Shown here: positions 3,795-63,806 of the stretch, piece after piece | How positions within the stretch are numbered: the first letter of the stretch is position 1 | How the letters are laid out: each line of letters starts with the position of its first letter | Source of the DNA: Eledone cirrhosa | Lineage: Eukaryota | Assembly: GCA_964016885.1 (NCBI GenBank) | Contig: OZ024740.1 | Location: 92,504,001-92,568,000, forward strand | Length of the DNA stretch: 64,000 bases | Reading direction: 5' to 3' | The notes under the pieces: generated by a model | Database searches by the model: none | The model's input: only the letters and a program-made list of their open reading frames with translations | Told to the model about the DNA's origin: nothing | Program-made: the position numbers and the translations under genes

Positions 3795-4339
3795 TGAGTT
3801 GAGATGGAGGGTCTGTGGTTTTTCTCACATCTGGTTGGTCTCTAAATGTTACTTGTTTTATATGGAAAAAATGGCTCGAAAGCCAGATTTTTCGAGAAGT
3901 AATTTGATTGGTTTGTCAATAATTATAATAAATTTCGCGCCAGTTCGCGTTACAATAGTTCTTCAAATAAGAGAGATTGTCACAGGTTGTTTTTTCATAT
4001 ATGAGTGTTTGAATTTCTTTTTACTTGAAAAAATGAGGCTCACGAAGGCTTTTTTTTGGTTGGTTATGATTGAAATTTGGCTGTCACGTGAACAAGTTTT
4101 CATTACATTTTTGCGCCTTTATTTGGAAAACTATTATGTAGTCTTTATAGTGAATGTTATGACAATGGAGAGATAGTGGTCAAGGGAAAAGGGATTGGGA
4201 GAAATGTTCTGGTTCAGTAAATATGGCCAGCTGTCAGTGTTCAGGTGTCAGAGTTCAGATTTTCTATTGAGACTGAAGATATGTGCTTATTTGTGTGCTT
4301 GTGTGTGTGTATATGTGTGTGTGTGTATGTGTGTATTGG

Positions 4340-4585
4340 AATATGATTCTATTAGTAGAGATGGGGGCGGGAGTTGTGTGTGTGTGTATATGGGTGTTAT
4401 GTGTGTGTGTGCGAGTATGTTAAGATGGAGAGAATATATATTTTGTGTGTGTGTATATATATATGTGTGTAGGAAAGTGGTTCTATTAGTAGAAATGGGG
4501 AGGGAGTTGTAGGTGTGGGGGTTGTTATGTGTGTGTATGGGTGTTATGTGTGTGGGATTATGTTTGGCATGTTAAGATGAAGAGA

Positions 4586-4616
<31 letters not shown>

Positions 4617-5450
4617 GTGTGTGTGTATGTGTGTGTGTAGGAAAGTGATTCCTTTAGTAGGAAGATGATTCTATTAGTAGAGATGGGGGAGGGAGTTGTG
4701 TGTGTGTGTATATGGGTGTTATGTGTGTGTGTGCGAGTATGTTAAGAGGGAGAGAATATATATTTTGTGTGTGTGTATATATATATGTGTGTAGGAAAGT
4801 GGTTCTATTAGTAGATATTTGGGGAGGGAGTTGTAGGTGTGGGGGTTGTTATGTGTGTGTATGGGTGTTATGTGTGTGTATGCGAGTATGTTAAGATGGA
4901 GAGAATATATATTTTGTGTGTGTGTATATATATATGTGTGTAGGAAAGTGGTTCTATTAGTAGATATTTGGGGAGGGAGTTGTAGGTGTGGGGGTCGTTA
5001 TGTGTGTGTATGGGTGTTATGTGTGTGGGAGTATGGTTGGCATGTTAAGATGAAGAGAATATATATATATATATATTGTGTGTGTGTGTATGTGTGTGTG
5101 TAGGAAACTGATTCCTTTAGTAGGAAGATGATTCTATTAGTAGAGATGGGGGAGGGAGTTGTGTGTGTGTGTATATGGGTGTTATGTGTGTGTGTGCGAG
5201 TATGTTAAGATGGAGAGAATATATATTTTGTGTGTGTGTATATATATATGTGTGTAGGAAAGTGGTTCTATTAGTAGATATGGGGAGGGAGTTGTAGGTG
5301 TGGGGGTTGTTATGTGTGTGTATGGGGGGTGTTATGTGTGTGGGAGTATGGTTAGCATGTTAAGATGAAGAGAATATATATATATATATATATATATTGT
5401 GTGTGTGTGTATGTGTGTGTGTAGGAATGTGATTCCTTTAGTAGGAATAT
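4340..5450. repeat. Composite tandem repeat (~150-320 bp GT-rich units) inside the family A 3' UTR
   Basis: Recurrent ttctattagtaga..ggggagggagttgt / gttaagatg..gagaatatat blocks; fewer units at 9490-10120 and 30890-31190. Confidence 0.85.
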
Positions 5451-5608: not shown

Positions 5609-8600
5609 TTAAACCTTATTTAATGTTGGTCTATAATTTTGAATAAACATATTTTCCTTATTTATTTGCATTTGTTCTGTTGTATTGTTAGCGCAAAGGT
5701 TAAATGGGAAGACTTGGAATTTGGGTGTCTTATTACTTGCGCAAATGTCTAGATGTGCACTTAGTGGTATCTGTCTCGTGGTTGGATCTCCTAATTGTTG
5801 GCGATGAACTGTCATTCTGTTTCTGAGTGTGAGTTTAGTTTGTCCTATATAATCTTCATTGCATCCTTTACATTTAATGGCATAAATCAGATTTTTTGAT
5901 GAGCAAGTGAAGTGATTTTTTACAGTAAAATTTTGTCCTGATTTAAATGTATACGTGTTGCCTTCAATGAGCTGAGTGCAGGTTCCACAATTAGAGCGAC
6001 CACATTTTTTGATACTTGGTTGTGGGTTTGTGGTAGGTAATTTGGCATTGGTGAGTAATGTTTTCAGTGATTTGGTTGTCTTTTGCTTTTGATTATTTTG
6101 TGTGTTTCAAGGGCTTTTTTCATTCTTGGGTTTTGTTTTAGTAGTGGGATGTTATTGTGAATAGTGTTGTAAGCTTCCGCATTTCTTGGGTTGTGTGTTG
6201 AGATATATGATAGAATATTGGACGTACCTTGAATTTGTTTCTGTTTCCGTAATTCATCAATGCCTATTGCTTTAGCCCTTTCTATTCCATTATTTATTAG
6301 TAATAGTGGGTACTCTCTCTCAAGTAGAATTTCCTTTAATTCTTGAAGTCTTTTATTTCGCGTTTCATAATTGGAGACAATTGTTCAAATACTTCTTGCT
6401 AGGTTAAAAGGTATGTTCGTCTTCGTGTGCTTTGGATGGTTGGAGGTGAATAGCAGATATTGTTTGGAATCTGTTGGTTTGTAGTGTATGTCAGTTTCGA
6501 TATTTGTGTCTTTTTTTGTGATTAAGATGTCCAGAAATGGGAGTTGATCTTGGCTGTATTCCATTGTGAATTGGATGTGGTTATTGATGCCGTTTATTAA
6601 GTTTTTGAAATCCTTCAGTTGGTCGAGTGTTTGGGACCAAAGAATGAGGCAATCATCCATGTAGCGTTTCCAATTCTCTGATAAATATTTGTGGAAGTTC
6701 AATCCGTATTTTGATTTGGAATGTTCATATATCTGGACTTCTAAGTATGCCATGACTAAGTTGGCATAAGTTGGAGCGGCTTTTGTGCCCATCGCAGTCC
6801 CCGATATTTGCTAGTAAGTATTATCATCGAAATCAAAAAAGTTGTTCTGTAGGATGAATTTTAATCCCTCGGTGATGAAGCTTTTTTCTATTCTGTCAGG
6901 TATCTCATTGGGATATTTCTCTAGCCAGAATCCTATTGCTTCTAGTCCGTATTGGTGTGGGATCGTTGTGTAGAGATTCACTACATCGAAAGACACAATA
7001 ATAGTGTCGTTGTTGACATGTTTGAGGAGGGGGTTTAAGAGGTCCAGATCGTCTCTTACAAGGCTTGGTATGTGTTTCAGTATTGGTTTCAGTAGTATGT
7101 CTATAAAGAGTCTCAATCTGTGTGTTTCACATTGTGGGCCCGCTACAATTGGTCTTAATTTAAGGTCTGTGGGGTATTGTGTGTTCACGCAGGCTGAGGT
7201 GGCTTGTTTACAGGCATCGTTGATTATTTTACATTTGTGGATCTTCGGAAGTCCGTAAAGGTTGCTGGTTTTGTATTCAAAATTTGTTAAATAATCGCGT
7301 TCCTTTTTAGTTACGTCTTCCTGGTATCGATAAATCAGTGTGTTTAATTTGGTCATTATTTTTGATTGCTGGTAGTTTTTTACTCTTTCATAGTAATTAG
7401 TATTTTGTAAGAGAGAGAACATAGAATTTTTATATTTTTCAGTCTCCATAATGACAACAGTACTTCCCGTGTCCGCCTCCTTAATTACAATGTCCGGATT
7501 GTTTTTTAGTTCATGGATAATCTCCCATTCCCTTCGACTTGTGTTGGGTTTGGGTTTAGGTTGGGGTAGTTCATGGTATGGGAAGGTAGCTATGTGGTCA
7601 CAAAATTTGTCCAGAACTCTGTTTCTACCTTTTGTTGGGTTGTAGCTGCTTTTATTCCGTACAATTGATTCGTCGTTATTCTCCTTGTCAAAGAATTCCT
7701 CTATGAGACGTAATTTTCTACAGAAGTGTGAGATATCGTCATTTATCTCGTTGGGGTTAGGATATTGTGGTGTTGGTGTGAATTTCAGTCCTTTGGAGAT
7801 AATTTTTACTTGTTGGGCTGAGAGGTTTGTATTTGAAATGTTAATTATTTTCGGTTTTTCAAAATCGGTTTGTGCCACCGGGTGTCGTGAGTCCTGTAGC
7901 CTTGGTCTAAAAAATGATTTTTCTGGAATGTTTTTTCATTGGTATTATTATATCTAATGGTATTTCCCCTGTTGTTGTGTGGTCTTGTATAGAAGTTTCG
8001 GACGTATTGAGGTTCGGTTTGTGGATAGTCCGGGTTGTAGATTTGGTTCCTTTGTGTGGGTTGGGATCTATGGTTTTGGAACAGGCTCTGTGTGGGCAGG
8101 GGTCTACGGTTTTGGAATAGGTTTTTTGTGGGTTGTGATCTGCGGATCAGGTCCTGCCTTGTGTTCGGGGATCTTTGGTTTTTGTTAGTAGGGTTATAGT
8201 TTTGTCTATGGTTTCTGGGATTATCGTTATAGTTTTGCTGGGGGTATGTTGGACGTTTTGTTACTTTTTTTGTTATTTGTTGTGCATGTGGTGTGTGAGT
8301 TTTAGTTTGTTTTAAGAATGGGTTACCTGTATGTTGTTCATTTTTGATGTCCATTTCGTAGTTGTTGAACCAGGTGGCGTTTTTTTCCCATCGCTGGAGG
8401 GATGTGAGTTCTTCATCCTCACAGTTTGCTTTCCAAAGTTTTAGGGGTTTTTTTGTAGAGTAGGCCTTCAGAGTGCTTTAAGATTTCTGTGTCCATCTGT
8501 TGATCGAGTGACTTGAATTTTTCTTTGTTGGAGTTGGCTCTTAATCGCAACAGTTCTATTTCTGTTTTAAATTTTTCCAATGCCATCTTTTCCCTAAGAC

Positions 8601-8745
8601 TTTGTTGGTTTTCTGGTTCATTCGGGATGGGTTTTGTTTTGAGTTTTTTGGGGAGCATGATTGGGGTAGAGTTTAACCACTTTTCATATATGTCTGCCTT
8701 GCCATTACTTTTTTATGAGATTCCAAAGGGCGAATTTGCGGGCTG
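5609..8745 (-). pseudogene. Disrupted PLE polyprotein: N-terminal domain, reverse transcriptase, Cys-rich linker, GIY-YIG endonuclease
   Basis: KGLKFTPTP, IKEADTGSTVVIM, LYGLPKIHK, RPIVAGP, SFDVVNLYTTIP, MGTKAAPTYANL, RYMDD, LPFLDI, HYKPTD. Endonuclease as in the inverted copy. Contains several stops and frameshifts. The Cys linker and CCHH-type EN suggest a Naiad/Neptune-like clade (unverified). Confidence 0.92.
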
Positions 8746-8747
8746 TG

Positions 8748-9329
8748 CCAAGAAATGCGGAAGCTTACAACACTATTCACAATAACATTCCACTACTAAA
8801 ACAAAACCCAAGAATGAAAAAAGCCCTTGAAACACACAAAATAATCAAAAGCAAAAGACAACCAAAATCACTGAAAACATTACTCACCAATGCCAAATTA
8901 CCTACCACAAACCCACAACCAAGTATCAAAAAATGTGGTCGCTCTAATTGTGGAACCTACACTCACCTCATTGAAGGCAACACGTATACATTTAAATCAG
9001 GACAAAATTTTACTGTAAAAAATCACTTCACTTGCTCATCAAAAAATCTAATTTATGCCATTAAATGTAAAGGATGCAATGAAGATTATATAGGACAAAC
9101 TAAACTCACACTCAGAAACAGAATGACAGTTCATCGCCAACGATTACGAGATCCAACCACGAGACAGATACCACTAAGTGCATATCTAGACATTTGCGCA
9201 AGTAATAAGACACCCAAATTCCAAGTCTTCCCATTTTACCTTTGCGCTAACAATACAACAGAACAAATGCGAATAAATAAGGAAAATATGTTTATTCAAA
9301 AATATAGACCAACATTAAATAAGGTTTAA
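8748..9329 (+). pseudogene. Inverted 3' copy of the family A ORF (GIY-YIG endonuclease)
   Basis: CGRSNCGT...CSSKNLIYAIKCKGCNEDYIGQTKLTLRNRMTVHRQ...ENMFIQKYRPTLN. The ORF-track start at 8715 crosses the inversion junction. Confidence 0.88.
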
Positions 9330-10131
9330 TATACATTATGTCAACACCACAATATGACATACACACACACACATAACACCTTCTACTTTAGAAAATAAAA
9401 ACCCGAACTAAATACACCTTAACATACGTTTGCACTGGCAATACAATAGCAAACACGAAAAAGTCAGGAAAATATGTTCATTCAAAAATATTCCTACTAA
9501 AGGAATCACTTTCCTACACACACACATACACACACACACAATATATATATATATATATTCTCTTCATCTTAACATGCTAACCATACTCCCACACACATAA
9601 CACCCATACACACAAATAACAACCCCCACACCTACAACTCCCTCCCCATTTCTACTAATAGAACCACTTTCCTACACACATATATATATACACACACACG
9701 AAATATATATTCTCTCCATCTTAACATACTCGCACACACACACATAACACCCATATACACACACACACAACTCCCTCCCCCATCTCTACTAATAGGATCA
9801 TCTTCCTACTAAAGGAATCACTTTCCTACACACACACATACACACACACACAATATATATATATATATATATTCTCTTCATCTTAATATGCCAACCATAC
9901 TCCCACACACATAACACCCATACACCCACATAACAACCCCCACAACTACAACTCCCTCCCCATTTCTACTAATAGAACCACTTTCCTACACACATATATA
10001 TATACACACACACAAAATATATATTCTCTCCATCTTAACATACTCGCACACACACACATAACACCCATATACACACACACGCAACTCCCTCCCCCATCTC
10101 TACTAATAGAATCATCTTCCAATACACACAT

Positions 10132-13745: not shown

Positions 13746-13761
13746 ATAAATATATATATAT

Positions 13762-14366
13762 TTGTTTTGTAAGGTTTTTATATGAAATCGTGTGTCGAAA
13801 TAAATAGTGTTATACTTGGGGAAGGTCACATTGTTGTAATAATATTACCAGAAATAATAACAGAAAACACTCATTGTTTGTTTGGTTTGGGCTTTCGTAT
13901 CTTTTATATCTTCATAGTTAATTCATTTGGCCATCAATGTTTATCACTGACAGGCCAACTGTAAAAAATACAGATATAAATACATATATATAGTCTAACA
14001 AAGTTCTTTCGTTGCACATCTGCAACATCATCAGTGGTATTATTCTTATGTTTCCCCCCATTCTATTGTATGTATTGTAGTGTCTTAAATGGCGTAGATA
14101 GTACAATAGATACAATACATGATAATAGTACCACTGATCATGTTGTAGATGTGCAACGAAAGAAATTTGTTAGACTATATATATATATATATGTATTTAT
14201 ATCTGTATTTTTTACCGTTGGCCAGTAGTGATAAACATTGATGGCCAAATTAATTAACTATGAAAATATAAAAGATAAAGAAACGAAAACCAACCTGAGA
14301 GTGTGTTCTGTTATTATTCTGTCAACATTGTTACAACAATATGACCCTTCTCTCCTCAAGTATACA

Positions 14367-14367: not shown

Positions 14368-14437
<70 letters not shown>

Positions 14438-14440
<3 letters not shown>

Positions 14441-15183
14441 GAATAATCGAGTATCGGAAAATCAGCTCACGAATTAACGATAAACAAATCCGATATGAGT
14501 GGCAGAGGTCTCAATAATTTGGGTAAATCAGAGCTATAACTATCGTTAAATTACCAACACATAAAGATTATGCCTAAAATCACCCATACAGCCGAAAAAG
14601 AACGACCAGGAAGATATGGGTCACTCAAATAAAATATCAATAAATCAATAATTTAAATGAATGTAAAAAACTTACCCGGACCCGCTAGAAGGGTGTTAAA
14701 TCTAGCTTCTTGGGTTTCTGCAATTCCTTAATCCATTCACTATCAGCCCACATAAAAATATATAAGACTTCTAGGGAAGGACCGGACCGGAAGAACTTTA
14801 TCAACGGGTTAAGTCCGATAATAAAGAAGTGACCTTTAGCCAGACACGCACATGCTGCCCAGCAAGGGAGATGACCTCTATATTAGCGAAAAATTTTCGG
14901 TAATGTTGAAATCATGTGGGGGTACAAAATATCACATATCGAATCAGAGTGCTCAATAGACATGTTAAAATAAACAGGAGCTATTCATGATTCAATAGAA
15001 TCGACAAAAAAAAATTATCAATAAAATTAACTGGTCAATAGCTATGTCTAGAGCTAAATATAATAGAATAATCGAGTATCGGAAAATCAGCTCACGTATT
15101 AACGATAAACAAATCCGATATGAGTGGCAGAGGGCTCAATAATTTGGGTAAATTAGAGCTATAACTATCGTTAAATTACCAAC

Positions 15184-15185
<2 letters not shown>
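14438..15185. repeat. (TA)n-flanked ~625-bp unit with ~120-bp terminal direct repeats
   Basis: 14438-14557 is repeated nearly identically at 15062-15183. Confidence 0.75.
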
Positions 15186-15269
<84 letters not shown>

Positions 15270-15272
<3 letters not shown>

Positions 15273-17113
15273 TATGTACACGTACATATATATATATGTA
15301 TACCGACGTACAGTAGTATGTACTTATATATACATACATGCACACATATATATATTTACGCATGGATTCACCGAAAATTATTATAATGCTCGGTGTGAAT
15401 GTAAACAAACATCCCTTATTAAGCTGTAGTGTCTAGCAACCATCGTTGCTCGTTTGTTCAACACTGACAAATGAACAGTGTACTAGTTTCAAGCTTATTA
15501 GCTATCGTCAGCAACGTATACGTTCCTGCCAGATAATTGAACGTATATATGCACATTAACGGCTGATTAGCCCAGATTGCATATCGAGTGGGTTAATCGG
15601 CCGGGTGCACCGAAAACGATAAACGGAAAAAGTGAAACGAAATTTCATTTACCACTTTTAGTACGGCTGTTACTTACATATAAGTATGTAAACGTACATA
15701 CATACATGTATACTGACGTACAGTAGTATGTACATATATATACATACATGCACACATATATAACGAGCAACGATGGTTGCTAGACACTACGGTTTAATAC
15801 GGGATGTTTGTTTACAAACACACCGAACATTATAACAAATGTTCGGTGAATCCATACGTACATATATATATGTGTGCATGTATGTATATATATGTACGTA
15901 CTACTGTACGTCTGTATACATATATGTATGTACGTGTACATACTTATATTTAAGTAGCAGCCGTACTAAAAGTGGGAAATGAAATTTCGTTTCATTTTTT
16001 CCGTTTATCGATTACGGTGCACCCGGCCGATTAACCCACTCGATATGCAAATGGGCTACTCAGCCGTTAATGTGCATGAGGTAAGTATATACGTTCAACA
16101 AACTGGCAGGAAGGTATACGTTGCTGACGATAGCTAATAAGCTTGAAACTAGTACAGCGTTCATTTGTCAGTGTTGAACAAACGAGCAACGATGGTTGCT
16201 AGACACTACGGCTTAATACGGGATGTTTGTTTACAAACACTCCGAGCTTCATAATAAATGTTCGGTGAATCCATACGTACATATATATATGTGTGCATGT
16301 ATGTATATATATGTAAATACTACTGTACGCCTGTATACATATATGTATGTACGTGTACATAATTATATTTAAGTAACAGCCGTACTAAATGTGGGAAATG
16401 AAATTTCGTTTCATTTTTTCCGTTTATCGTTTTCGGTGCACCCGGCCGATTATCCCACACGATATGCAAATTGGGCTACTCAGCCGTTAATGAGCATAAA
16501 GTAAGTATATACGTTCAACAATCTGGTAGGAAGGTATACGTTGCTGACGATAGCTAATAAGCTTGAAACTAGTACATCATTCCTTTGTCAGTGTTAAACA
16601 AACGAGCAACGATGATTGCTAGACACTACAGCTTAATACAGCATGTTTGTTTACAAACACACCGAGCATTATAATAAATGTTCGGTGAATCCATACGCAC
16701 ATATATATGTGTGCATGTATGTATATATATGTACATACTACTGTACGTCTGTATACATATATGTATGTATGTGTACATACTTATATATAAGTAACAGCCG
16801 TACTAAGTGTGGGAAATTAAATTTAGTTTCATTTTGTCCGTTTATCATTTTCGTTGCACCCGGCCGATTAACCCACTCGATATGCAAACTGGGCGACTCA
16901 GTCGTTAATGTGCATAAGTAATTATATACGTTCAACAATCTGGCAGGAAGGTATACGTTGCTGACGATAGCTAATAAGCTTGAAACTAGTACATCGTTCC
17001 TTTGTCAGTGTTGAACAAACGAGCAACGATGGTTTCTAGACACTACGGCTTAATACGGGATGTTTGTTTACAAACACACCGAGCATTATAGTAAATGTTT
17101 GGTGAAACCATAC

Positions 17114-17164
<51 letters not shown>

Positions 17165-18240
17165 CATGTATGTATATATATGCACATACTACTGTACGTC
17201 TGTATACATATATGTATGTACGTGTACATGCTTATATTTAAGTAACAGCCATACTAAATGTGGGAACTGAAATATTGTTTCCTTTTTCCGTTTATCGTTT
17301 TCGGTGCACACGGCCGATTAACCCACTCGATATGCAAATTGAGCTACTCAGCCGTTAATGTGCATGAGGTAATTATATACGTTCAACAATCTGCCTGTAA
17401 GGTATACGTTGCTGACGATAGCTAATAAACTTGAAACTAGGACAGCATTCCTTTGTCAGTGTAGAACAAACAAGCAACGATGTTTACTAGACACTACGGC
17501 TTAATACGGGATGTTTGTTTACAAACACACCGAACATTATAATAAAGGTTCGCTGAATCCATACGTACATATATATGTGTGTGCATGTATGTATATATAT
17601 GTACATACTACTGTTGTCTGTATACATATATGTATGTATGTGTACATACTTATATATAAGTAACAGCCGTACTAAATGTGGGAAATGAAATTTCGTTTCA
17701 TTTTTTCCGTTTATCATATTCGTTGCACCCGGCCGATTAACCCACTCAATATGCAAACTGGGCTACTCAGCCGTTAATGTGCATAAGGTAAGTATATACC
17801 TTCAACAATCTGGCAGGAAAGTATTATTTGCTGACGATAGATAATAAGCTTGAAACTAGTACAGCGTTGCTTTGTCAGTGTTGAACGAACGAGCAACGAT
17901 GGTTGCTAGACTCTACGGCTTAATACGGGATGTTTGTTTATTAATACACCGAGCATTATAATAAATGTTCGGTGTCTCCATACGTACATATATATATATA
18001 TGTGTGCATGTATGTATATATATATACATACTACTGTACGTATGTATACATATATGTATGTACGGCTGTACATACTTATATTTAAGTAGCAGCCGTACTA
18101 AAAGTGGGAAATGAAATTTCGTTTCAATTTTTCCGTTTATCGTTTTCGATGCACTCGGCCGATTAACCCACTCGATATGCAAATTGGGCTACTCAGCCGT
18201 CAATGTGCATACGGTAAGTATGTACCTTCAACAATCTGGC
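15270..18240. repeat. ~420-bp HHR-bearing tandem satellite (retrozyme-like): ~1.2 inverted units (15270-15761) then ~5.9 head-to-tail units (15762-18240)
   Basis: Unit starts (aacgagcaacgatgg) at ~15762, 16181, 16601, 17018, 17469 and 17888. Each complete unit has one HHR. Confidence 0.9.
16118..16160 (+). ncRNA. Hammerhead ribozyme of the satellite unit (other copies at 16538-16580, 16955-16997, 17406-17448 [cleavage site mutated], 17825-17867 and 15475-15517 on minus)
   Basis: acgttg-CTGACGA-t-AGCT-aata-AGCT-t-GAAA-CTAG-TA-cagcgt: canonical core, 6-bp stem I, palindromic stem III ACTAGT, triplet GUA. Confidence 0.88.
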
Positions 18241-18244
18241 AATA

Positions 18245-18651
18245 ACCAATACACAGTCACCCAAACACGAACACACATCAAACAGAACAATATACACACA
18301 CGCAGACGCATGCACAGAGAAGACAACAGAACTAACAAATAAATAATTCAATAAACTGACTGAATAAAGATGGCGTAAGCATACAATACAACGGGAGGAA
18401 ACGTAATAGCACCACTGACGATGTTGCAGATGTGCAACGAAAGAACTTTGTTAGACTATATATATGTGTTTGTGTCTATATTGTATCTGTATTTTTGACC
18501 GTTGGTCAGTCAATGGTAACATTGAGGACCAAATAAATTAAATTAACCCATATAAAAGACACAGAAGCGAAATCCAACCAAACAGTGAGTGTGTTCTGTT
18601 ATCATTTCTGGCAATATTATTACAACAATATGACTCCTCCCTAGGTAAAAC
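18245..18651 (+). mobile_element. Family F pLTR 3' end with HHR (~18405-18458), joined to the satellite and ending at (TA)n
   Basis: Similar to 14090-14367; contains cca-CTGACGA-tgttgcagatgtgcaac-GAAA-gaac-TT-tg. Confidence 0.7.
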
Positions 18652-18689
18652 TATATATATATATATACATATATATTACTATATACATA

Positions 18690-18738
<49 letters not shown>

Positions 18739-19076
18739 TACAATGACATGTGTCTTTTCCTGTTAATCTGTTTTCACCTAGAATAATATAACCCAAGTTA
18801 TACATGAATTCATTTGTTTAAGAAAGTTGTTAGCAAGCGTCTATAATGAAACGTCTACGCATAACAAACGGTCTTTCTGTCCTGTACTCATAGCATTAAA
18901 ATGTTATTTTAATAACTGTGATTGATTGAAGACTAAACTCCAGCAATGAAGAAATATTTAAGTGCTGACTTATACTTCTTGTTTGTAAATTATTGCGGAG
19001 CAAATTGATCCACCTGCTCAATTTCTTGTGCGTTCTACCCTGCATATTTAAATATCGGTAACTGACCAACACCCAC

Positions 19077-19182
<106 letters not shown>

Positions 19183-19562
19183 TGTGTGTGTGTGTGCGCG
19201 CGTTTGTGTGTGTGTGTGTGCGTGCGTGCGTGCGTGTGTGTTTCTAAATATAGGTAGAGTCGGCTCGTATGTTATGCAATCGAAGCTGTTATCGTCTCGT
19301 GTGATGTTTATATGTCATACTTCATTTTATTCATGGTTAAGGCGGTTATAACGTGCTGAATCTTAAATATATAAATATATACACATATATCTATTATATA
19401 TGCATTTATATTCAATTCACACGTTTTCGCCCTGCGTAGGTGGGCACGGGAAAATCAAACGTAACAAATTTCACTATGTATACAAATTTAATAAATATTT
19501 AAACTGTTTCGGTATTGAGTATTTGTTCAAGTATTTCAGTAATGCACAATTATAGATAGAAC

Positions 19563-19720
19563 AATTGTTTCTACTTTTTGGGACAAGGCCAGCAATTACC
19601 CATTGCATGACTGGTACTTTATTTTATCGACCCCGTAAGGATGAAAAGCAAACTTAATTTCGGCGGGATTCGAACTCCGAAAGGGAAGGGTTGTGACTCT
19701 TTGCGTCAATGCATAGCGTC
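19563..19720 (-). mobile_element. tRNA-derived SINE, diverged
   Basis: Shares acaaggccagc...gtactttattttatcgaccccgtaaggatgaaa...cggcgggatt with the other copies. Confidence 0.8.
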
Positions 19721-20000
19721 AGATAGAATAATGACAATAACGAAGATGATATTTATCGTTTACATAGCTCAATGTCTAAAACGAGACGAGCGAGAGGAAG
19801 ATGTTGTATCTAGACAGCTAATTTAGAGTTGCATACCTGCTATCGATTAGTGAATATATCGATATTATTATGTTTACTTCACCCTTTTGAAATGTTCGTA
19901 AATCAATGAAACCGTTAAGGATTAAACCTTGTCTTGTTTCAGTGCATTCTTAAAACTACATATATGACACTGTAATTCTCTTCAATAATTAGGAAAATAT

Positions 20001-20188
20001 AATTGTTTCTACTTTTGACACAAGGCCAGCAATTACCCAGTGCATTACTGGTACTTTATTTTATCGACCCCGTAAGGATGAAAGCCAAAGTCAACCTCGG
20101 CGGGATTTGAACTCAGATCGTAAAGGGACGTAACTATGCTGGAAAGCATGGCGTCCGACCCTCTACCGATACTGCCAATCCACCCCCA
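20001..20188 (-). mobile_element. tRNA-derived SINE (~185 bp)
   Basis: On the sense strand: A-box-like TGGCAGTATCGG, B-box GAGTTCAAATCC, conserved (G)CTTTCATCCTTACGGGGTCGATAAAATAAAGTACCAG body, ATT-type tail. Confidence 0.88.
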
Positions 20189-20589
20189 ATATGATGGTAC
20201 TCTTCCGCAATACCACAAAACAAGAAATGTTCATATCATTTCGTCCGCATAGAGTACTAAAAGTGTTTTTTTTTTCTCTGAGGAGGGTGGGTTATGCCTC
20301 AAAGGAGGTGAAGTTCATTGAGTATATGTAATGTCGGAATATGTTGAATAGCGAAGACTGGCAGAGCTCTCCACATGTTGAAAATATGTAATATATAATG
20401 TTACTGACGAAACGATAGACTCCTTAAAGTTGTTTCATTTTGTACGGTGCAGGAAACTAGATCGACGGTGGATCACCATTTGAATTGCCAACCATAGTTC
20501 CTAGATACACTAATGGAGTTCCTGTAAATTGAATGGATTGGAATGTTTGATGTGTGCAGTGTAATGATGTATATTGTGGTATGTCGTGG

Positions 20590-30879: not shown

Positions 30880-33291
30880 GTGTATTGGAAATGATTCTAT
30901 TAGTAGAAATGGGGGAGGGAGTTGTGTGTGTGTGTATATGGGTGTTATGTGTGTGTGCGAGTATGTTAAGATGGAGAGAATATATATTTTGTGTGTGTGT
31001 ATATCTGTGTGTAGGAAAGTGGTTCTATTAGTAGAAATGAGGGAGGGGAGCTGTGGGTGTGGGGGTTGTTATGTGTGTGTATGTGTGTTATGTGTGTGGG
31101 AGTATGGTTAGCACGTTAAGATGAAGAGAATATATATATATATATTGTGTGTGTGTGTGTGTGTGTGTGTAGGAAAATGATTCCTTTAGTAGGAATATTT
31201 TTGAGTGAACATATTTTCCTTACTTATTCGTATTTGTTCTGTTGTATTGTCAGTGCAAACGTATGTTAAGGTTTATTTAGTTCGGGTTTTTATTTTCTAA
31301 AGTAGAAGGTGTTATGTGTGTGTTTGTATGTCATATTATGGTGTTGACATAATGTATATTGAACCATATTTAATGTTGGTCTATATTTTTGAATAAACAT
31401 ATTTTCCTTATTTATTCGTATTTGTTCTGTTGTATTGTGAGCGCAAAGGTAAAATGGGAAGACTTGGAATTTCGGTGTCTTATTACTTGAGCAAATGTCT
31501 AGATGTGCACTTAGTGGTATCTGTCTCGTGGTTGGATCTCCTAATTGTTGGCGATGAACTGTCATTCTGTTTCTGAGTGTGAGTTTAGTTTGTCCTATAT
31601 AATCTTCATTGCATCCTTTACAGTTAATGGCATAAAACAGATTTTTTGATGAGCAAGTGAAGTGATTTTTTTACAGTAAAATGTTGTCCTGATTTAAATG
31701 TATATGTGTTGCCTTCAATGGGGTGAGTGCAGGTTCCACAATTAGAGGGACCACATTTTTTATACTTGGTTGTGGGTTTGTGGTAGGTAATTTGGCATTG
31801 GTGAGTAATGTTTTCAGTGATTTTGGTTGTCATTTGCTTTTGATTATTTTGTGTGTTTGAAGGGCTTTTTTCATTCTTGGGTTTTGTTTTAGTAGTGGGA
31901 TGTTCTTGTGAATAGTGTTGTAAGCTTCCGCATTTCTTGGGTTGTGTGTTGAGATATATGATAGAATATTGGAAGTACCTTGAATTTGTTTCTGTTTCCG
32001 TAATTCATCAATGCCTATTGCTTTAGCCCTTTCTATTCCTTTATTTATTAGTAATAGTGGGTACTCTCTCTCGAGTAGAATTTCCTTTAATTCTTGAAGT
32101 CTTTTATTTCGCGTTTCATAAATGGAGACAATCGTGCAAATTCTTCTTGCTAGGTTAAAAGGAATGTTCGTCTTCGTGTGCTTTGGATGGTTGGAGGTGA
32201 ATAGTAGATATTGTTTGGAATCTGTTGGTTTGTAGTGTATGTCAGTTTCGATATGTGTGTCTTTTTTTAAGATTAAGATGTTCAGAAATGGGAGTTGATC
32301 TTGGCTGTATTCAATTGTGAATTGGATGTGGTTATTGACGCCGTTTATTAAATTTTTGAAATCCTTCAGTTCGTCGAGTGTGTGGGACCAAAGAATGAGG
32401 CAATCATCCAAATAAAGTTTCCAATTCTCTGATAAATATTTGAGGAAGTTCAATCCGTATTTTGATTTTGACTGTTCATATATCTGGACTTCTAAGTATG
32501 CCATGACTAAGTTGGCATAAGATGGAGCCTTCGTGAGCCACCTTTTTTTAAGTAAAGAAATTCAAACACACACACACACACACAGCACACACACACACAC
32601 ACGCACACACACACAAGCACACAAATAAACATACATATCTATACTTTCTTTATTCAATAGAAAATCTGAATTCTTACACCCCAGCGAACTAACCATATTC
32701 ACTGAACCAGAACAATTCTCCCATCCCTTTCTCTTGACCATTATCTTTCACTTATAAAATTCTCTAAAAAGGCTACAGAAGGGATTTCCAAATAAGGGCA
32801 CGGAAATTTACTGAAAACATGTTCACGTGACACCCATAATTTCATTTATAACCAACCAAAAAAAGCCTTCGTCAGCCCCTTTTTTCAAGTAAAAAGAAAT
32901 TCAAACACTCATATACGAAAAAACAACCTGTGACAACACCCCCTCTTATTTGAAGAACTATTGTAACGCGAACTAGCGCGAAATTTATTATAATTATTGA
33001 CAAACCAATCAAATAAGTTCTCGAAAAACCTGGCATTTCGAGCTACTTTTTCCATATGAGACAAGTAACATTCAGAGACCAACCAGATGTGAGAAAAACC
33101 ACAGACCCTCCATCTCAACTCACCTTTTGAAAAGCAGAAGAATTGCGAAAACGGTAAAGGAACCAAATAAATATATATATTTAAAAAAAAAATAAGACTC
33201 CAGTTGCATTTTCGATTTCATCTCTTTTTCTTTATACTTTCACTCGTGTAGGACACCTCGGTTATTTTTCATTTTGTAAAAAAAACATCAC

Positions 33292-40950: not shown

Positions 40951-42407
40951 ATATACAACCACCAATTTTGTTCGCGTTAACATGCACATTAAAATATATG
41001 GATATATATATATATAGGAATGTAGGTGTGTGTGTATCTGTGTGTGTGTCTACATGAGTGTGTGTGTGTGTGTGTGTGTTGCGCGTTTGAACACACTCTT
41101 ATTAACAGGGGCGTATATTTATCTATCTACATTGAATGTGTGCATGTCTTTATGTGCTTATTATTTCATGAGGCTAAATATATACGATTTGGGATACAAC
41201 ATGCCATTAACGTATTTTAAAATATACATCAAACTACTCGTTTGAATGTAGTAGTTTTAGAGGAAGCGATCACTTTTTACTTGAATCCTTTAATGTTAAA
41301 TTATTTTCTGCAGCGCAATTATATATGTTTGTTTGAGTGAGTGTCCGTGCATTTGTAACTACGCTTTTGTGGCTGATTGATATATATATATATATAAGGA
41401 GGAAGTTATAGTTCACTTGAAGCATTGTGTAATGAGGTATAAACGTTTGTATATGTATAATAAAGCCAAAATAATGCAGGTACGGACATAGAATATAGAA
41501 TACAAATGCAAAAGATATTGTTGACAATTAGTCTTTTACCTTAGATTTATTTAAATGTCCTTAATTTTCGAGATAATATCTCTTCTTCGGAGGGAAGTAA
41601 AGCGGTTACACCAGTGTTCTAAATAGCTTGCCAAGTCATGCTGACAGGAAATGTTATAGAGTATCTGTTCTATCTCTAATGACAAAGAATTAAGGTTATG
41701 TGGATAAAGAGTAGTCTCCCTTTAAACTGTTTTGTTTTTTGTACATGCCTGTTTAAGTGTGTGGGAGAATGTGTAAGGTGTAAGTATGTGTGTGTGTGTG
41801 TGAGTGTGAGAAGATCTCTATACGTAAATGTGCGGGATAGATGTTATCTCGTGTTATAGCTGGTCTTTGTGTGTGTATGTGTGTGTGTGAGAGAGAATAA
41901 GTGTAACTGTAAGCGTATGTGTGTGTGTGTGTGTGCGTGTGTATGTGTATGTGTGTGTGTGTGTGTATGTGTGTGTGGGTGGCGGGTGTAAATATGGGGC
42001 TAGATGCTCTATCATGTTATACACTGGGTGTTGAGTTCTAGTCTATTATTGATTGGTGGTTGTCTTTTGTCTACAATTAGTACTTCCTTAATTCTAAGAT
42101 TGCCGAGGTTTCTTTCCTTAGATTCTATCCTAACTGTTATGGTTTTGTCGGTGTTTTTGCATTTAACTAGGTCTTTCTTAAATGAGCAAGCGTTAGTATT
42201 GAGGTGTTCTTTTCTTCTTATGTGGAGTGGTCTGGTGGTACTACCTACGTAGAAGTTGCTGCATTTGTCGCACTCTAGTCTGTATACGACGTTAGCCTTG
42301 TGGCAAAGGTCTGTGTAGTTGATGGGGCAGTTGGCTAGCCTGCAGTGTTTGTCATGTCTGGTAGAGTGTCTTTGGGATAGTTGTCCGCGTAGAGAAGGAC
42401 CTGAGTG

Positions 42408-43315
42408 GATATATAGATGACATACTCATCCTTACATCATCCCATGAGGAGGCGGATAAAATATACACAACATTCTCTAGCATGGACGCCAGCATAACGT
42501 TCAGCATGGAACACTCCGATGACCGCGGATCCTTATCCCTACTGGACTTCCAACTCAGGGTAACATAGGAAGGGAACATCCACACTTGCTTCTATAAAAA
42601 AGCCGCCAGCAGGGATCTGTTCGTACATTTCAGATCGACCCTCCCACCCAGCGCTAAGTTCGGATACATAAGGAACGATCTAACACGTATCCGGAACAAA
42701 TGCACCGACGCTAGAGACCGAGACACACACACCACACATTTCCTGGAAGTACTCAAACTGAACGGATACACGACATCCACCACAAACCATGCCAGAAAGA
42801 ACGGAGGACACCACACACGAGGCACTAAAACTCTGCTTCCTGAAGCTCCCACACTTCAGTTACGAAACAACAACAGCCATCCGCAGAGCTATCAGACGAG
42901 AGGGACTAGGTATCTAACTGGCCCACTCAGGTCATTCTCTACGCGGACAGCTAACCAAAAGACACTCCACCAGATATGACAACGGCTGCAGGCTAGCCAA
43001 CTGCCCCATCAACGACACAGACCTATGCCACCAGGCTTACGTCGTATACAGACTAGAGTGCGACAAATGCAGCAACTTCTACGTAGGTAGCATCACCAGA
43101 CCACTCCACATAATAATAAAAGAACACCTCAATACTAACGCATCCTCATTTAAGAAACACCTAGTTAAATGCCAAAATACAGTCAAAACCATAACAGTTA
43201 GGATATAAACTAAGGAAAGAATCCTCGGTAATCTTAGAATTAAGGAAGCACTAATTATAGACAAAACGAAACCACCAATCAATAATAGACTAGAACTCAA
43301 CATCCAATTCATAAC
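42408..43315 (+). pseudogene. Family B RT C-terminus + GIY-YIG, 5'-truncated upstream copy
   Basis: Starts at YIDDILIL; CRLANCPINDTDLCHQAYVVYRLECDKCSNFYVGS...RPLHI.IKEHL...IKEALII...PPINNRLELN. Confidence 0.85.
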
Positions 43316-43881
43316 TTGATAGAGCGTCTAGCCCCATATTTACACCCGCCACCCACACACACACACGCACGCGCACACACACATACAGACACGCGCTTAC
43401 ACCTCCACTTATTCTCTCTCACACACACACATACACACACAAAGACAAGTTCTCACACAAGATTACACCTATCCCCCACATTTACGTAAAGACATAGCTT
43501 CTCACACTGACACACCCACACATACTTACACCTCACACATTCTCCCACACACTTAAACAGGCAAGTACAAACAAAAAAAAACCCTTTCAAAGGGAGACTA
43601 CTCTTTATCCACCTAACCTTAACTCTTTGACATTAAAGATAGAACAGATACTCTATACCATTTCCTGTCAGCATGACTTCGCAAGCTATTTATAACACTG
43701 GTTTAACCGCTTTACTTCCCTACGGAGATATTATCTCGTAAATTAAGGACATTTAAATAAATCTAAGAGAAAAGACTAATTGTCAACAATATCTTTTGCA
43801 TTTGCATTCTTTATTCTATGCCCATACCTGCATTGTTTTGGCTTTATTATACATATACAAACGTTTATACCTCATTATACA

Positions 43882-46440
43882 ATGCTTAAAGTGAACTATA
43901 ACTTCCTCCTTTACTTACGCCTGAGCCAGGCCCAGTTCACAACTGTAAAGAAACTCTTCCAGCTATCTGAAAAGCGCGCCAAAGCTGGCTGCCAAATAAA
44001 CTTCCTAAAACGATGCCTGAATAATAACATCATCCTCAAAACTATCAAACACTTGCACCTACCAACATGCTTCAAATCACCAGGTTTCAAACGATCACTT
44101 AGCTACATACAAACATTCTGCCTAAGAAAACTCATACAACACCTACACCGCTTGCTACAACACATACAGACTATTTACAGCCTTGTACCACAACTCGCTG
44201 AAACCCCAGAACCTCTGTCCAGTGTTACCTCCGCCGCTATAGCTAGGTCATACCACCATCGTCGACACTACGAGAAAATACGCCTAAGGCAAACATTTCT
44301 CAAACTCACCACGGCTAACCGTCTTAACAACATCCCAACTGTAAGCACCAACAGAGGCGAACAAGACAGTACCAACACCGAACCTAGCGGCGCCCCAACC
44401 AACAACACAACTGACGCAAAACACCTCGTCACAGACTTGACAGGATCCCTCTCCCGAGAGGAATTAGATATCCTCAGCCTGGGTCCCAAGTTCATATTGA
44501 AACAGAAACTGGACGACAAATTATGGCTCGACTTAGAAACAAATTTCTGTCGGGCTGCCTACCAACTAAAATGGATATCGACTCTCGGCAACACCACGGA
44601 ACCGAACAAAACCAGATTCCCGATATACCAACTGGATTGCCCACTCTGTCGACCGCCTGCCAACCGCAAGCTTGAAGAAAAACTCTCGATGCTAAAACAT
44701 TCCGTATTTAACATCTTACGGAAACAGAAGAAGATAGCTCCAAACCTCTCCGGGACACAACAGCTGGCCCTGAAGAACCTACGGAATAGGGAACGTATAT
44801 ACTTAACATTCGACAAAGGTAAAGAGTTTGCGTCATCTCTCAAGTCACATACAACAACCTAGCCTGTGAATACGTAAGCGACAATGAATTATAGACAGAG
44901 ATCCCGGACATGACTGCAGCACAGATCGAAAAACAGACCAACTCCATCTGATTCGACATCTGTAAGAGAAGACAACACCCAAATAAAGTTAAGCTCATCT
45001 ACACCACTATAAATAGCAGTCTGCCCACTTTCTACCACCTCATCAAGATCCACAAGAATAATACTAAGACACAAATAAGACCCATCGTCTCTAGAGTAGA
45101 AGGAACCCTATACACAATTTCCTGGCTCCTCTCACAGGTCCACAAGCCTCTACTCTCCAACTTTCCTGGGCACGTCAGTAGCCCCGACGAAGTCATACGT
45201 AGACTACACCAACTAGCCAGAACAATTAAAACGAAATAGATACGCTTTTAGCCTCGACGTTGTCTCCCTCTACATTACAATCGCCGCTCATCAAGTTGTC
45301 GATTTATTGACGGACTGCGTGGTCGCAGAGGACATCCACTGCTACGGCCTCCTTCCGACGGACATACACCAGCTTTTGTCCTTCACAGTGGACAACACGT
45401 ACTTCACCTTCCACCACCACACATAGAGACAGACAACAGGATTACCCATGGGATTCAGCATATCAGGCCGGCTGGCCATCACCTATATGAGCCAGCTAGA
45501 ATGCCGAGCCATCAACACCTGCCATTCCCATACTTTCTTCACCCGATATGTAGATGACATGCTCATCCTTACATCATCCCGTGAGGAGGCGGATATAATA
45601 TAAACAACATTCTCCAGCATGGACGCCAGTATAAAGTTCAGCATGGAACACCCCGATGGCCGCGGATCCCTATCCCTACTGGACTTCCAACTCAGGGTAA
45701 CAGAGGAAGGCAACATCCACACTTGCTTCTATAAAAAAGCCGCCAGCAGGGACCTGTTCGTACATTTCAGATCGGCCTCCCCACGCAGCGCTAAATTCGA
45801 ATACATAAGGAACGAACTACACTTATCCGGAACAAATGCACCGACGCTAGAGACCGAGACACACACACCACACATTTCCTGGAAGTACTCAAACTGAACG
45901 GATACACGACATCCACCACAAACCATGCCAGAAAGAACAGAGGACACCACACCCGAGGTACTAAGAGTTGCTTCCTGAAGCTCCCACACTTCAGTGACGA
46001 AACAACAACAGCCATCCGCAGAGCTATCAGACGAGAGGGACTAGATATCCAACTAGCCCACTCAGGTCCTTCTCTACGCGGACAGCTAACAAAAGACACT
46101 CCACCAGACATGGCAGCCGCTGCAGGCTAGCCCCATCAACGACACAGACCTATGCCACCAGGCTTACATCGTATACAGACTAGAGTGCGACAAATGCAGC
46201 AACTTCTACGTAGGTAGTACCAGACCACTCCACATAATAATAAAAGAACACCTCAATACTAACGCATTCTCATTTAAGAAACACCTAGTTAAATGCAAAA
46301 TCACAGACAAAAAACCATAACAGTTAGGATATAAACTAAGGAAAGAAACCTCGGCAATCTTAGAATTAAGGAAGCACTAATTATAGTCAAAAGACAACCA
46401 CCAATCAATAATAGACTAGAACTCAACACCCAATGTATAA
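43882..46440 (+). pseudogene. Family B PLE polyprotein (N-terminal domain, RT, GIY-YIG), disrupted
   Basis: INFLKRCLNNNII, ILSLGPKF, NLSGTQQLALKNL, DKG, FYHLIKIHK, IRPIVS, SLDVVSLY, GLPMG, RYVDD, LSLLDF, VYRLECDKC..YVGS. Multiple stops and frameshifts. The start is assigned to ATG 43882 by inference. Confidence 0.88.
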
Positions 46441-63361: not shown

Positions 63362-63806
63362 TCTATATATATAAAGCTGTGGTTGTCTGTCTGTCTATCG
63401 ATTTTTGGCACACATCTCCTCTTAGAATCTCTGACGGAATTGCACCGAAATTTCTATACTTGTACATTGAGCCCTAGCGAAGACATCGGAAACAAAATAT
63501 TTCAAAATTACCCACCCTATGTGACGAAATCGAATCTAATGTATCGATTTTTGAGCGTAAGTGACGAGTTATTTCCCTTTGTTCTATATATATAAAGCTG
63601 TGGTTGTGTCTGTCTATCGATTTTTGGCACACATCTCCTCTTAGAATCTCTGACGGGATTGCACCGAAAATTGCTATACTTGTACATTGAGCCCTAGCGA
63701 AGACATCGGAAAAATAATATTTCAAATTGACCCACCCTATGTGACGAAATCGAATCTAATGTATCGATTTTTGAGCGTAAGTGACGAGTTATTTTCCTTT
63801 GTTCTG
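63362..63806 (+). mobile_element. Tandemly duplicated (221-bp) Helitron-like 5' terminus
   Basis: Each unit starts TCTATATATATAAAG followed by (gtct)n, as in non-autonomous animal Helitrons. No 3' CTAG end is seen in the window. Confidence 0.55.

Follow-up and report, generated by a model that had tools for sequence, protein, structure and literature searches.

The array and its hammerhead cores

The window analysed here, a 64,000-nt stretch of Eledone cirrhosa genomic DNA (contig OZ024740.1), contains a tandem array of roughly 420-nt non-coding units that carry hammerhead ribozyme cores. On the evidence set out below, all of it drawn from genome sequence, this array most probably goes back to the old insertion of a hammerhead retroelement that is non-coding and present in high copy number, a non-long terminal repeat (non-LTR) retrozyme. 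Coordinates are those of the whole window, and unit positions are counted from the base after the predicted ribozyme cut (position 1 = window 16155). On its left the insertion abuts a (TA)n target tract (15186-15262), which is followed by a 500-nt inverted arm of about 1.2 units on the minus strand (15263-15762). This arm covers unit positions 130-420 and then 1-217, and its 3' end at position 217, referred to as the short site, lies directly against the (TA)n run. It is joined 5'-to-5' at 15762 to a direct, plus-strand arm of about 5.9 units (15762-18241), which runs from unit position 27 to 420, through four full units of 420, 417, 451 and 419 nt from cut to cut, and on through positions 1-374. 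An earlier note on this DNA had described about six head-to-tail non-coding units preceded by about 1.2 inverted units abutting (TA)n, and both parts of that description hold.

Unit G+C is 0.37-0.38 and unit length is 417-451 nt, within the low-G+C, 150-450-nt range of retrozymes. The longest ATG frame in a dimer is 92 codons, and no reverse transcriptase (RT) or GIY-YIG open reading frame (ORF) was found in the units. There is no LTR architecture, the units lying head-to-tail without an internal region (primer-binding sites and polypurine tracts were not searched for). The right end of the direct arm is abnormal: it halts at unit position 374, where, with 1-2 nt of microhomology, it meets the 5'-truncated 3' end of an RT/GIY-YIG element, here called element B (18240-18655, plus strand). 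Element B, which ends in a (TA)n tract (18652-18740), takes the place of the array's normal right end.

Six cores of the form CTGACGA-N14-GAAACTAG(T/G)A are present, one at each of the five direct-arm junctions (plus strand; 16124-16154, 16544-16574, 16961-16991, 17412-17442 and 17831-17861, each with its predicted cut after the last coordinate) and one in the inverted arm (minus strand; start at 15511, predicted cut after 15481). The best-preserved hammerhead, with an extended helix I, spans 16098-16179 on the plus strand; its helix I is formed by 16118-16123 paired with 16155-16160, and its core at 16124 is the only fully intact one among the six. The cores at 16544 and 16961 are intact themselves, with two and one helix I mismatches, respectively, and the inverted-arm core has one helix I mismatch. 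The core at 17412 has GGA in place of GUH as well as a helix II mismatch, and the one at 17831 has lost half of helix I, through damage to its 5' strand, and one helix II pair; these two are probably dead. The earlier note had placed a hammerhead in each complete unit, which stands as regards the presence of cores but not as regards their integrity.

Helix I (ACGUUG/CAGCGU) has 6 bp and is prolonged by another stem, helix II has 4-5 bp (in family A, to which the array belongs, a U.U followed by 4 bp), and helix III has 2 bp with a 2-nt UA loop, inside the palindrome ACUAGU. The canonical type has been set apart from the "min-HHR" (minimal hammerhead ribozyme) of Penelope-like elements (PLEs), which has no helix III and a helix II of 7-8 bp, and so weak a helix III is said to require a dimer (PMC4209133). 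Judged by these helices, the ribozyme is a canonical metazoan, retrozyme-type type-I hammerhead and not a PLE min-HHR. The palindromic stem III of the earlier note is thus upheld, its invariant sequence being ACUAGU, and the label "minimal" is not. A search against Rfam returned no hammerhead family either at the gathering threshold or among the 150 of 152 matches listed at E<=10; the matches were TA-rich microRNA-like noise.

Genomic copies and their integration footprint

The family is present in high copy throughout the 3.0-Gb genome. An exact 34-mer of the core has 5,868 copies (reversed control 0), a 25-mer from unit position 101 has 8,989 (control 0), and a relaxed CTGACGA-type core has 16,407 (control 0). 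The pattern CTGADGA, which excludes C at N7, gave 23,863 additional matches (reversed control 7), and among 100 of these that were listed sister families prevail. The sister families are A2 (about 484 nt; 70-88% identity to family A by segment), A3, and E/F (466-469 nt; about 67% identity to A over positions 123-318). For the clade as a whole this would amount to roughly 40,000 hammerhead cores. The copies are dispersed, range from monomers to multimers and in many cases are flanked by (TA)n. The genome-wide copy counts and the flanks of sampled copies refute the single-locus duplication that the earlier note had named as an outcome against its reading.

Copy ends were compared in 120 merged regions, a non-random set that combines the top BLAST matches with three loci of element B and the majority of the first-listed contig-1 pattern matches. 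With segments below 84% identity and TA-only matches excluded, there were 210 arms, of which 204 lay clear of locus edges. The 3' ends of 171 of these 204 arms lie at one of two fixed sites, the short site at position 217 (78 arms; 213-221) or a tail site at position 273 (93 arms; 266-273); some of the 33 other ends are chaining breaks. (TA)3 directly follows the 3' end in 58 of 78 short arms and 79 of 93 tail arms, as against 4 of the 33 others. Arms with a fixed 3' end have a median length of 429 nt. Back-to-back pairs numbered 67, and in the 48 pairs with both ends at fixed sites the combination was short with tail in 45, tail with tail in 3 and short with short in none (binomial p=6e-11). 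Two of the 45 are local duplicates, and inversion junctions were recurrent in local duplicates only. Paired insertions have both ends in (TA)n. Of 58 unpaired arms, only 9 have (TA)n on the 5' side, and no upstream sequence in register recurs among the 5' flanks of the 58.

At the junctions, 2-4 nt overlap with the TA target. A T/A polymorphism at position 215 was set aside as an effect of the junction, with A in 61 of 71 short-terminal segments and in 5 of 284 elsewhere. Sister-family 3' ends lie at homologous sites (270 and 328 in A2; 233 and 302 in E/F). For a single sample, each of three DNA runs yielded 28-38 contigs that pass from the unit into (TA)n at 18140, which corresponds to position 273. 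The two end sites bound a 56-nt tail, which in the unit that follows the best-preserved hammerhead lies on the plus strand at 16371-16427 (16371 being position 217 and 16427 position 273) and holds a predicted hairpin at about 16390-16425. This tail region is likely to be the RT initiation region.

For PLEs, truncated copies in inverted orientation and a tail confined to one end have been described as characteristic, and a CxxC linker has tentatively been tied to (TA)n targeting (Craig et al., PMC8557442); in vitro, the tail has been equated with two internal RT start sites (Frangieh et al., PMC11167929). Because the family A copies have two fixed 3' ends and pair as short with tail, and because the same rule is followed by element B, in which seven of seven pairs are short with tail (tail about 45 nt), the copies were likely inserted by a Penelope-type RT protein. 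The earlier note had proposed insertion by a PLE RT with the inverted geometry of the neighbouring PLEs, and both proposals gain support from these counts.

One of the element B pairs lies in the window (13754-14364). The element is also found at further loci (L211-L215); it is abundant, targets (TA)n and has an Asn-rich N-terminal region. By inspection, its upstream frame contains YVDD, a CxxC linker and a GIY-YIG-like motif. A hammerhead-like motif at 18415-18442 is without the standard GAAA...UH helix III. A protein search found seven relatives at 37-41% identity, and the four that were checked had no informative Pfam hit. Element B is possibly a poorly characterised PLE lineage.

The right end of the array would be expected to bear a tail, and it stops at position 374 instead. 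The end of element B that it meets is a short end, and a single A/B chimeric insertion by template switch would therefore be short with short, a combination absent from all 48 A pairs and all 7 B pairs; moreover, only 9 of 58 unpaired arms keep (TA)n on the 5' side. For these reasons the chimera is disfavoured, and a later insertion of element B with a target deletion appears the likelier origin of this end. The array/B junction is absent from the other 39 best B matches. The contig pieces listed from the DNA runs include none across the 18240 junction, which is no evidence either way.

Template, array history and RNA structure

The 5' ends of the 204 arms are scattered, with no pile-up at a fixed unit position; a pile-up at position 1 was a BLAST edge artefact and was gone on re-extension. 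After re-extension, five of the 204 lay within 6 nt of the cut site, where 5.8 were expected. Of the arms that reach their first cut site, 4 of 131 stop there (4 of 47 in loci not chosen by hammerhead), and a cleaved linear monomer as the usual template is rejected on this count. Because the 5' ends are not clustered at the cleavage site, the template would have been unbroken through it, either as a circle or as an uncut multimer. Subfamily alleles are shared at 0.70 within one insertion and 0.21 between loci, and unit divergence is 3.3% within an insertion and 5.1% between loci, while two arms have subfamily alleles mixed between units. Between arms, same-register units differ by 3.25% and different-register units by 2.79% (39 pairs, p=0.09). 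The allele sharing and the lack of a register effect fit a monomer circle, and they fit uncut transcripts of homogeneous arrays too.

In the window array, segments differ from the family majority by 3.1-6.6% and from each other by 5.9-11%. A variant at position 338 is common to all seven segments that cover it and another at position 235 to six of seven; their presence across both arms points to a single lineage of template. Five rare variants are common to two units that lie two apart. Three other long arrays have dimer or tetramer periodicity, and in two dimer cases the breakpoints are mid-unit; multimeric RNA circles were rejected as the source of the higher-order repeats in those two arrays on that ground. 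Read together, the variants indicate that the window array is old and mosaic. Its six-unit length may owe something to later DNA exchange, and because of this the length alone is no record of rolling-circle synthesis. The earlier note had taken the array for a single rolling-circle product, a view that the divergence between units, the shared rare variants and the DNA duplication seen in other arrays call into question.

A long homogeneous array of family E (C1:5.738-5.752 Mb; L238, L259, L237) contains 31 cores that diverge by about 0.6%; its boundaries in (TA)n are a short end and, in inverted orientation, a tailed one. At 14 kb, it is the best locus on which to ask whether one reverse transcription event can yield such a length. 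Family A forms arrays of about 21 kb (C1:51.77-51.79 Mb; L218, L122-L124) and about 14 kb (C21:33.95-33.97 Mb; L216-L217), the latter with tetramer periodicity and a tailed end; the long family A arrays hold at least 27 and at least 41 detected cores. The variants 25T, 97G and 353T, fixed in the C1:51.77-Mb array, occur at less than 5% among dispersed copies.

Compensatory change was found at both scales compared. In an alignment of 14 hand-picked hammerhead copies across families, 96.4% of cells were paired and 9 of 20 pairs were changed on both sides, as against at most 52% and 2 pairs in a slid-partner control. The core and ACUAGU are invariant in these copies save at N7 and the cleavage-site base (A, U or C), and helices I and II covary across families. 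In a whole-monomer comparison of nine copies, 23 of 89 predicted pairs were compensatory. These include a predicted long-range 6-bp helix (16208-16213 with 16378-16383, plus strand) that encloses a domain with a long TA-rich hairpin, and in which three of six pairs are changed on both sides between families. Circular monomer folds gave z scores of -3.9 to -11.8 (25 shuffles each); those of family A were 67-70% paired (z -3.9 and -8.1), with a contribution from the TA-rich hairpin. These comparisons argue that the RNA structure is under selection.

Proposed mechanism, rival explanations and relatives

We consider it highly probable that the family is at once a retrozyme and mobilised by a PLE, and we lean, with clearly less assurance, towards the full chain of events that includes a circular template. 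In that chain, tandem copies would be transcribed, and the ACUAGU helix III strands of two hammerheads would pair, so that cleavage after GUA frees a 420-nt monomer whose ends the extended helix I would hold together. The circle would then be closed by a host RtcB-type ligase; RtcB-type ligation to a circle has been shown for mussel and axolotl retrozymes (PMC7229834). A PLE protein would cut both (TA)n strands and prime reverse transcription from each end at about 214-217 and 273, sites that flank the conserved hairpin, using 2-4 nt of UA-type microhomology. The two cDNAs would pass the cleavage junction, halt randomly and join 5'-to-5', and some copies would later grow by unequal DNA exchange. 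In the window, the tailed right end would have been lost to the later insertion of element B or to a deletion.

Several observations weigh against this account. A comparison with 496 kb of flanks, which take in element B and the PLEs of the window, found no autonomous partner whose pseudo-LTR or tail is homologous (the genome's PLE families were not catalogued), and a looser core pattern found none; the flank, looser-core and protein searches pointed to no particular PLE as the partner. Element B itself has no Pfam hit, and its matches to a GIY-YIG domain (E=4e-5) and an RT fragment (E=0.012) in the window are weak. As for the ribozyme, the folds of single cores do not surpass those of shuffled sequences (z -2.4 to +0.3) and do not take the active form, which agrees with the need for a dimer and is no evidence for activity. 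Helix II of family A begins with a U.U mismatch, a feature that axolotl HHR_Amex2 also has at the base of helix II (PMC7229834). Behind the covariation stand about two deep lineages with some sub-branches, and the same sequences served to derive the structure. In published work, eight of nine Xenopus retrozyme dimers were uncleaved in vitro (Li, Clavereau and Pollet, bioRxiv 10.64898/2026.07.22.740005), and PLE insertion in vitro did not require the hammerhead (PMC11167929). Finally, homogeneous arrays of at least 31 units exist, and their uncut transcripts would leave the same 5' pattern as a circle.

These last points could be met by a template that is an uncleaved linear multimer transcribed from homogeneous arrays, with mobilisation still by a PLE, circles absent or irrelevant, and the hammerhead serving turnover, end processing or protein-assisted late cutting. 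We regard this as rather unlikely, although several points favour it: the long family E and family A arrays could provide such transcripts, uncut RNA was the main PLE substrate in vitro and ribozyme mutants inserted normally (PMC11167929), two arms have alleles mixed between units, and neither the 5' end test nor the register test can tell it from a circle. Set against it are the rarity among dispersed copies of the variants fixed in the C1:51.77-Mb array, the maintenance of helices I-III and of the whole-unit fold by compensatory change, and the accumulation of coral, mussel and axolotl retrozymes as circles (PMC7229834).

The same insertion geometry could also arise if the units were pseudo-LTR fragments, that is, 5'-truncated partial tandems, of an undiscovered autonomous PLE, and 24 of 57 Xenopus retrozyme families are terminally homologous to Repbase elements, nearly all of them PLEs (bioRxiv 10.64898/2026.07.22.740005). 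However, the units lie head-to-tail with no ORF between them, neither the scattered 5' ends nor the 5' flanks of unpaired arms point to a common upstream sequence, and the ribozyme is canonical. We therefore hold this origin for the present copies to be improbable; a variant, in which the unit had an ancient pseudo-LTR origin, would be compatible with the data. Least probable of all, in our estimation, is that the units are a satellite dispersed at the DNA level, through unequal crossing-over or extrachromosomal DNA circles, in which the hammerhead survives as a relic. The dimer and tetramer higher-order repeats and mid-unit breakpoints among the three long arrays, and the mosaic variants of the window array, are what such a satellite would show, but it leaves unexplained the two fixed orientation-specific 3' ends in (TA)n together with scattered 5' ends, the short-with-tail rule held in common with an RT element, the median arm length and the covarying helices. 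Satellite spread is thus largely refuted for dispersal and valid for local array growth, long arrays enlarged by DNA exchange being a minority among the loci.

The PLE-mobilised retrozyme reading agrees with what is known of related elements. As in the metazoan non-LTR retrozymes of PMC7229834, the units are tandem, non-coding, 150-450 nt long and low in G+C (37-38% here), occur in thousands of copies, and combine a canonical type-I hammerhead and a weak palindromic helix III with a highly self-paired monomer; by these comparisons the element has all the sequence-testable features of that group. Cleavage and circles have been demonstrated for the retrozymes of PMC7229834, whereas the window family is known from genome sequence alone. 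Those retrozymes have large target-site duplications when any are present, and two fixed start sites, (TA)n targeting and short-with-tail pairs are not described in the passages of that paper covered here; no cephalopod family appears in its main text (0 hits; the supplement is outside this scope). With endonuclease-bearing PLEs (PMC8557442, PMC11167929) the family shares 5' truncation, partial tandem copies, an inverted copy that is truncated at its 5' end, a tail at one end, two internal RT starts, a microsatellite bias and a hammerhead upstream of those starts. Unlike those elements, the family has no ORF, its tail is 56-69 nt rather than 30-40, and its hammerhead is canonical and not minimal (PMC4209133). 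The start sites have 2-4 nt of target microhomology, whereas initiation by the anole element of PMC11167929 involves no homology. Chlamys PLEs such as MRC1 (PMC8557442) are likewise non-autonomous, multicopy, head-to-tail and PLE-mobilised.

A dependence of retrozymes on PLEs has been proposed before (PMC7229834, PMC7761336, PMC11722881, PMC8969392, bioRxiv 10.64898/2026.07.22.740005), and a 2020 review describes animal retrozyme repeats as without a conserved motif pointing to a partner (PMC7761336). The bioRxiv preprint likewise concludes that retrozymes are PLE-dependent, on the basis of co-occurrence and pseudo-LTR homology in Xenopus, and molluscs are not among its sampled classes; in the present case pseudo-LTR homology was sought without success, and the argument is built on the integration footprint. 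The literature covered, including PMC10886601, describes no cephalopod retrozyme and no such end geometry in retrozymes; supplements, Repbase and subscription papers are outside this scope and could list the family. The earlier note knew of no description of the family, which agrees with this search as far as cephalopods go, but elements of this kind have been described (PMC7229834; bioRxiv 10.64898/2026.07.22.740005). As far as its sequence tells, the family is a new, cephalopod member of the metazoan non-LTR retrozymes already known, and not a new class; the genomic evidence that it offers for mobilisation of the Penelope type is unusually clear.

Other elements were observed in and around the window. 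A broken RT/GIY-YIG element with a CxxC linker (5609-9329; Pfam GIY-YIG E=1e-6, RVT_1 E=8e-4) is an inverted copy pair with frame breaks, Neptune-like by motif, with a related copy at about 31290-33217; it is flanked by tandem repeats at 4338-5447 and 9491-10120 (149/314/463 nt), and another tandem repeat lies at 63362-63805 (220 nt). Fragments of another RT/GIY-YIG element lie in tandem and inverted arrangement at 42012-46130. Two more minimal-hammerhead-like families (735, 39305, 39558, 54846 and 57304; 1840 and 2228), some of them in inverted pairs, probably represent termini of further PLE families. A 750-bp element (14438-15185) lies between two (TA)n tracts and has a 134-bp direct terminal repeat of 96% identity (14430-14563, 15055-15188); in shape it resembles a non-autonomous element of the partial-tandem kind. 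At 19545-19723, at 19993-20190 and in some nine other places there is a dispersed repeat of about 190 bp that is similar to a short interspersed nuclear element; ARAGORN found no tRNA in the window, and none in this repeat. Elsewhere, a reflectin-like gene cluster was noted at C1:45.66-46.10 Mb, with a 368-aa Met/Tyr/Asp-rich ORF containing repeated MDM motifs (L263 1249-2355). These traits fit reflectin and a cephalopod host, but the ORF had no Pfam reflectin hit, and in a count of a reflectin pattern the control exceeded the signal.

Which enzyme and which template lie behind the mobilisation of animal retrozymes is an open question that this clade addresses. It supplies a quantitative footprint, consisting of two fixed starts, one short and one tailed end, and a seven-of-seven match in a co-resident RT element, as well as a structurally conserved candidate recognition domain, so that the question can be tested in the existing in vitro PLE assay. 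The pairing rule also bears on how PLE tails and inversions form. A bolder proposal, which we put forward tentatively and with less than even confidence, is that at least four cephalopod ribozyme circles, accounting for about 40,000 genomic hammerheads, parasitise a Penelope RT without pseudo-LTR homology, a conserved fold around the tail hairpin (56-69 nt) recruiting the enzyme, which would prime at two fixed sites, one from each end of a single (TA)n break, and roll round the circle. If this is true, the genome would directly record, in these insertions, the rolling-circle reverse transcription of circular RNAs, and the tail domain would be a portable PLE-RT loading signal.

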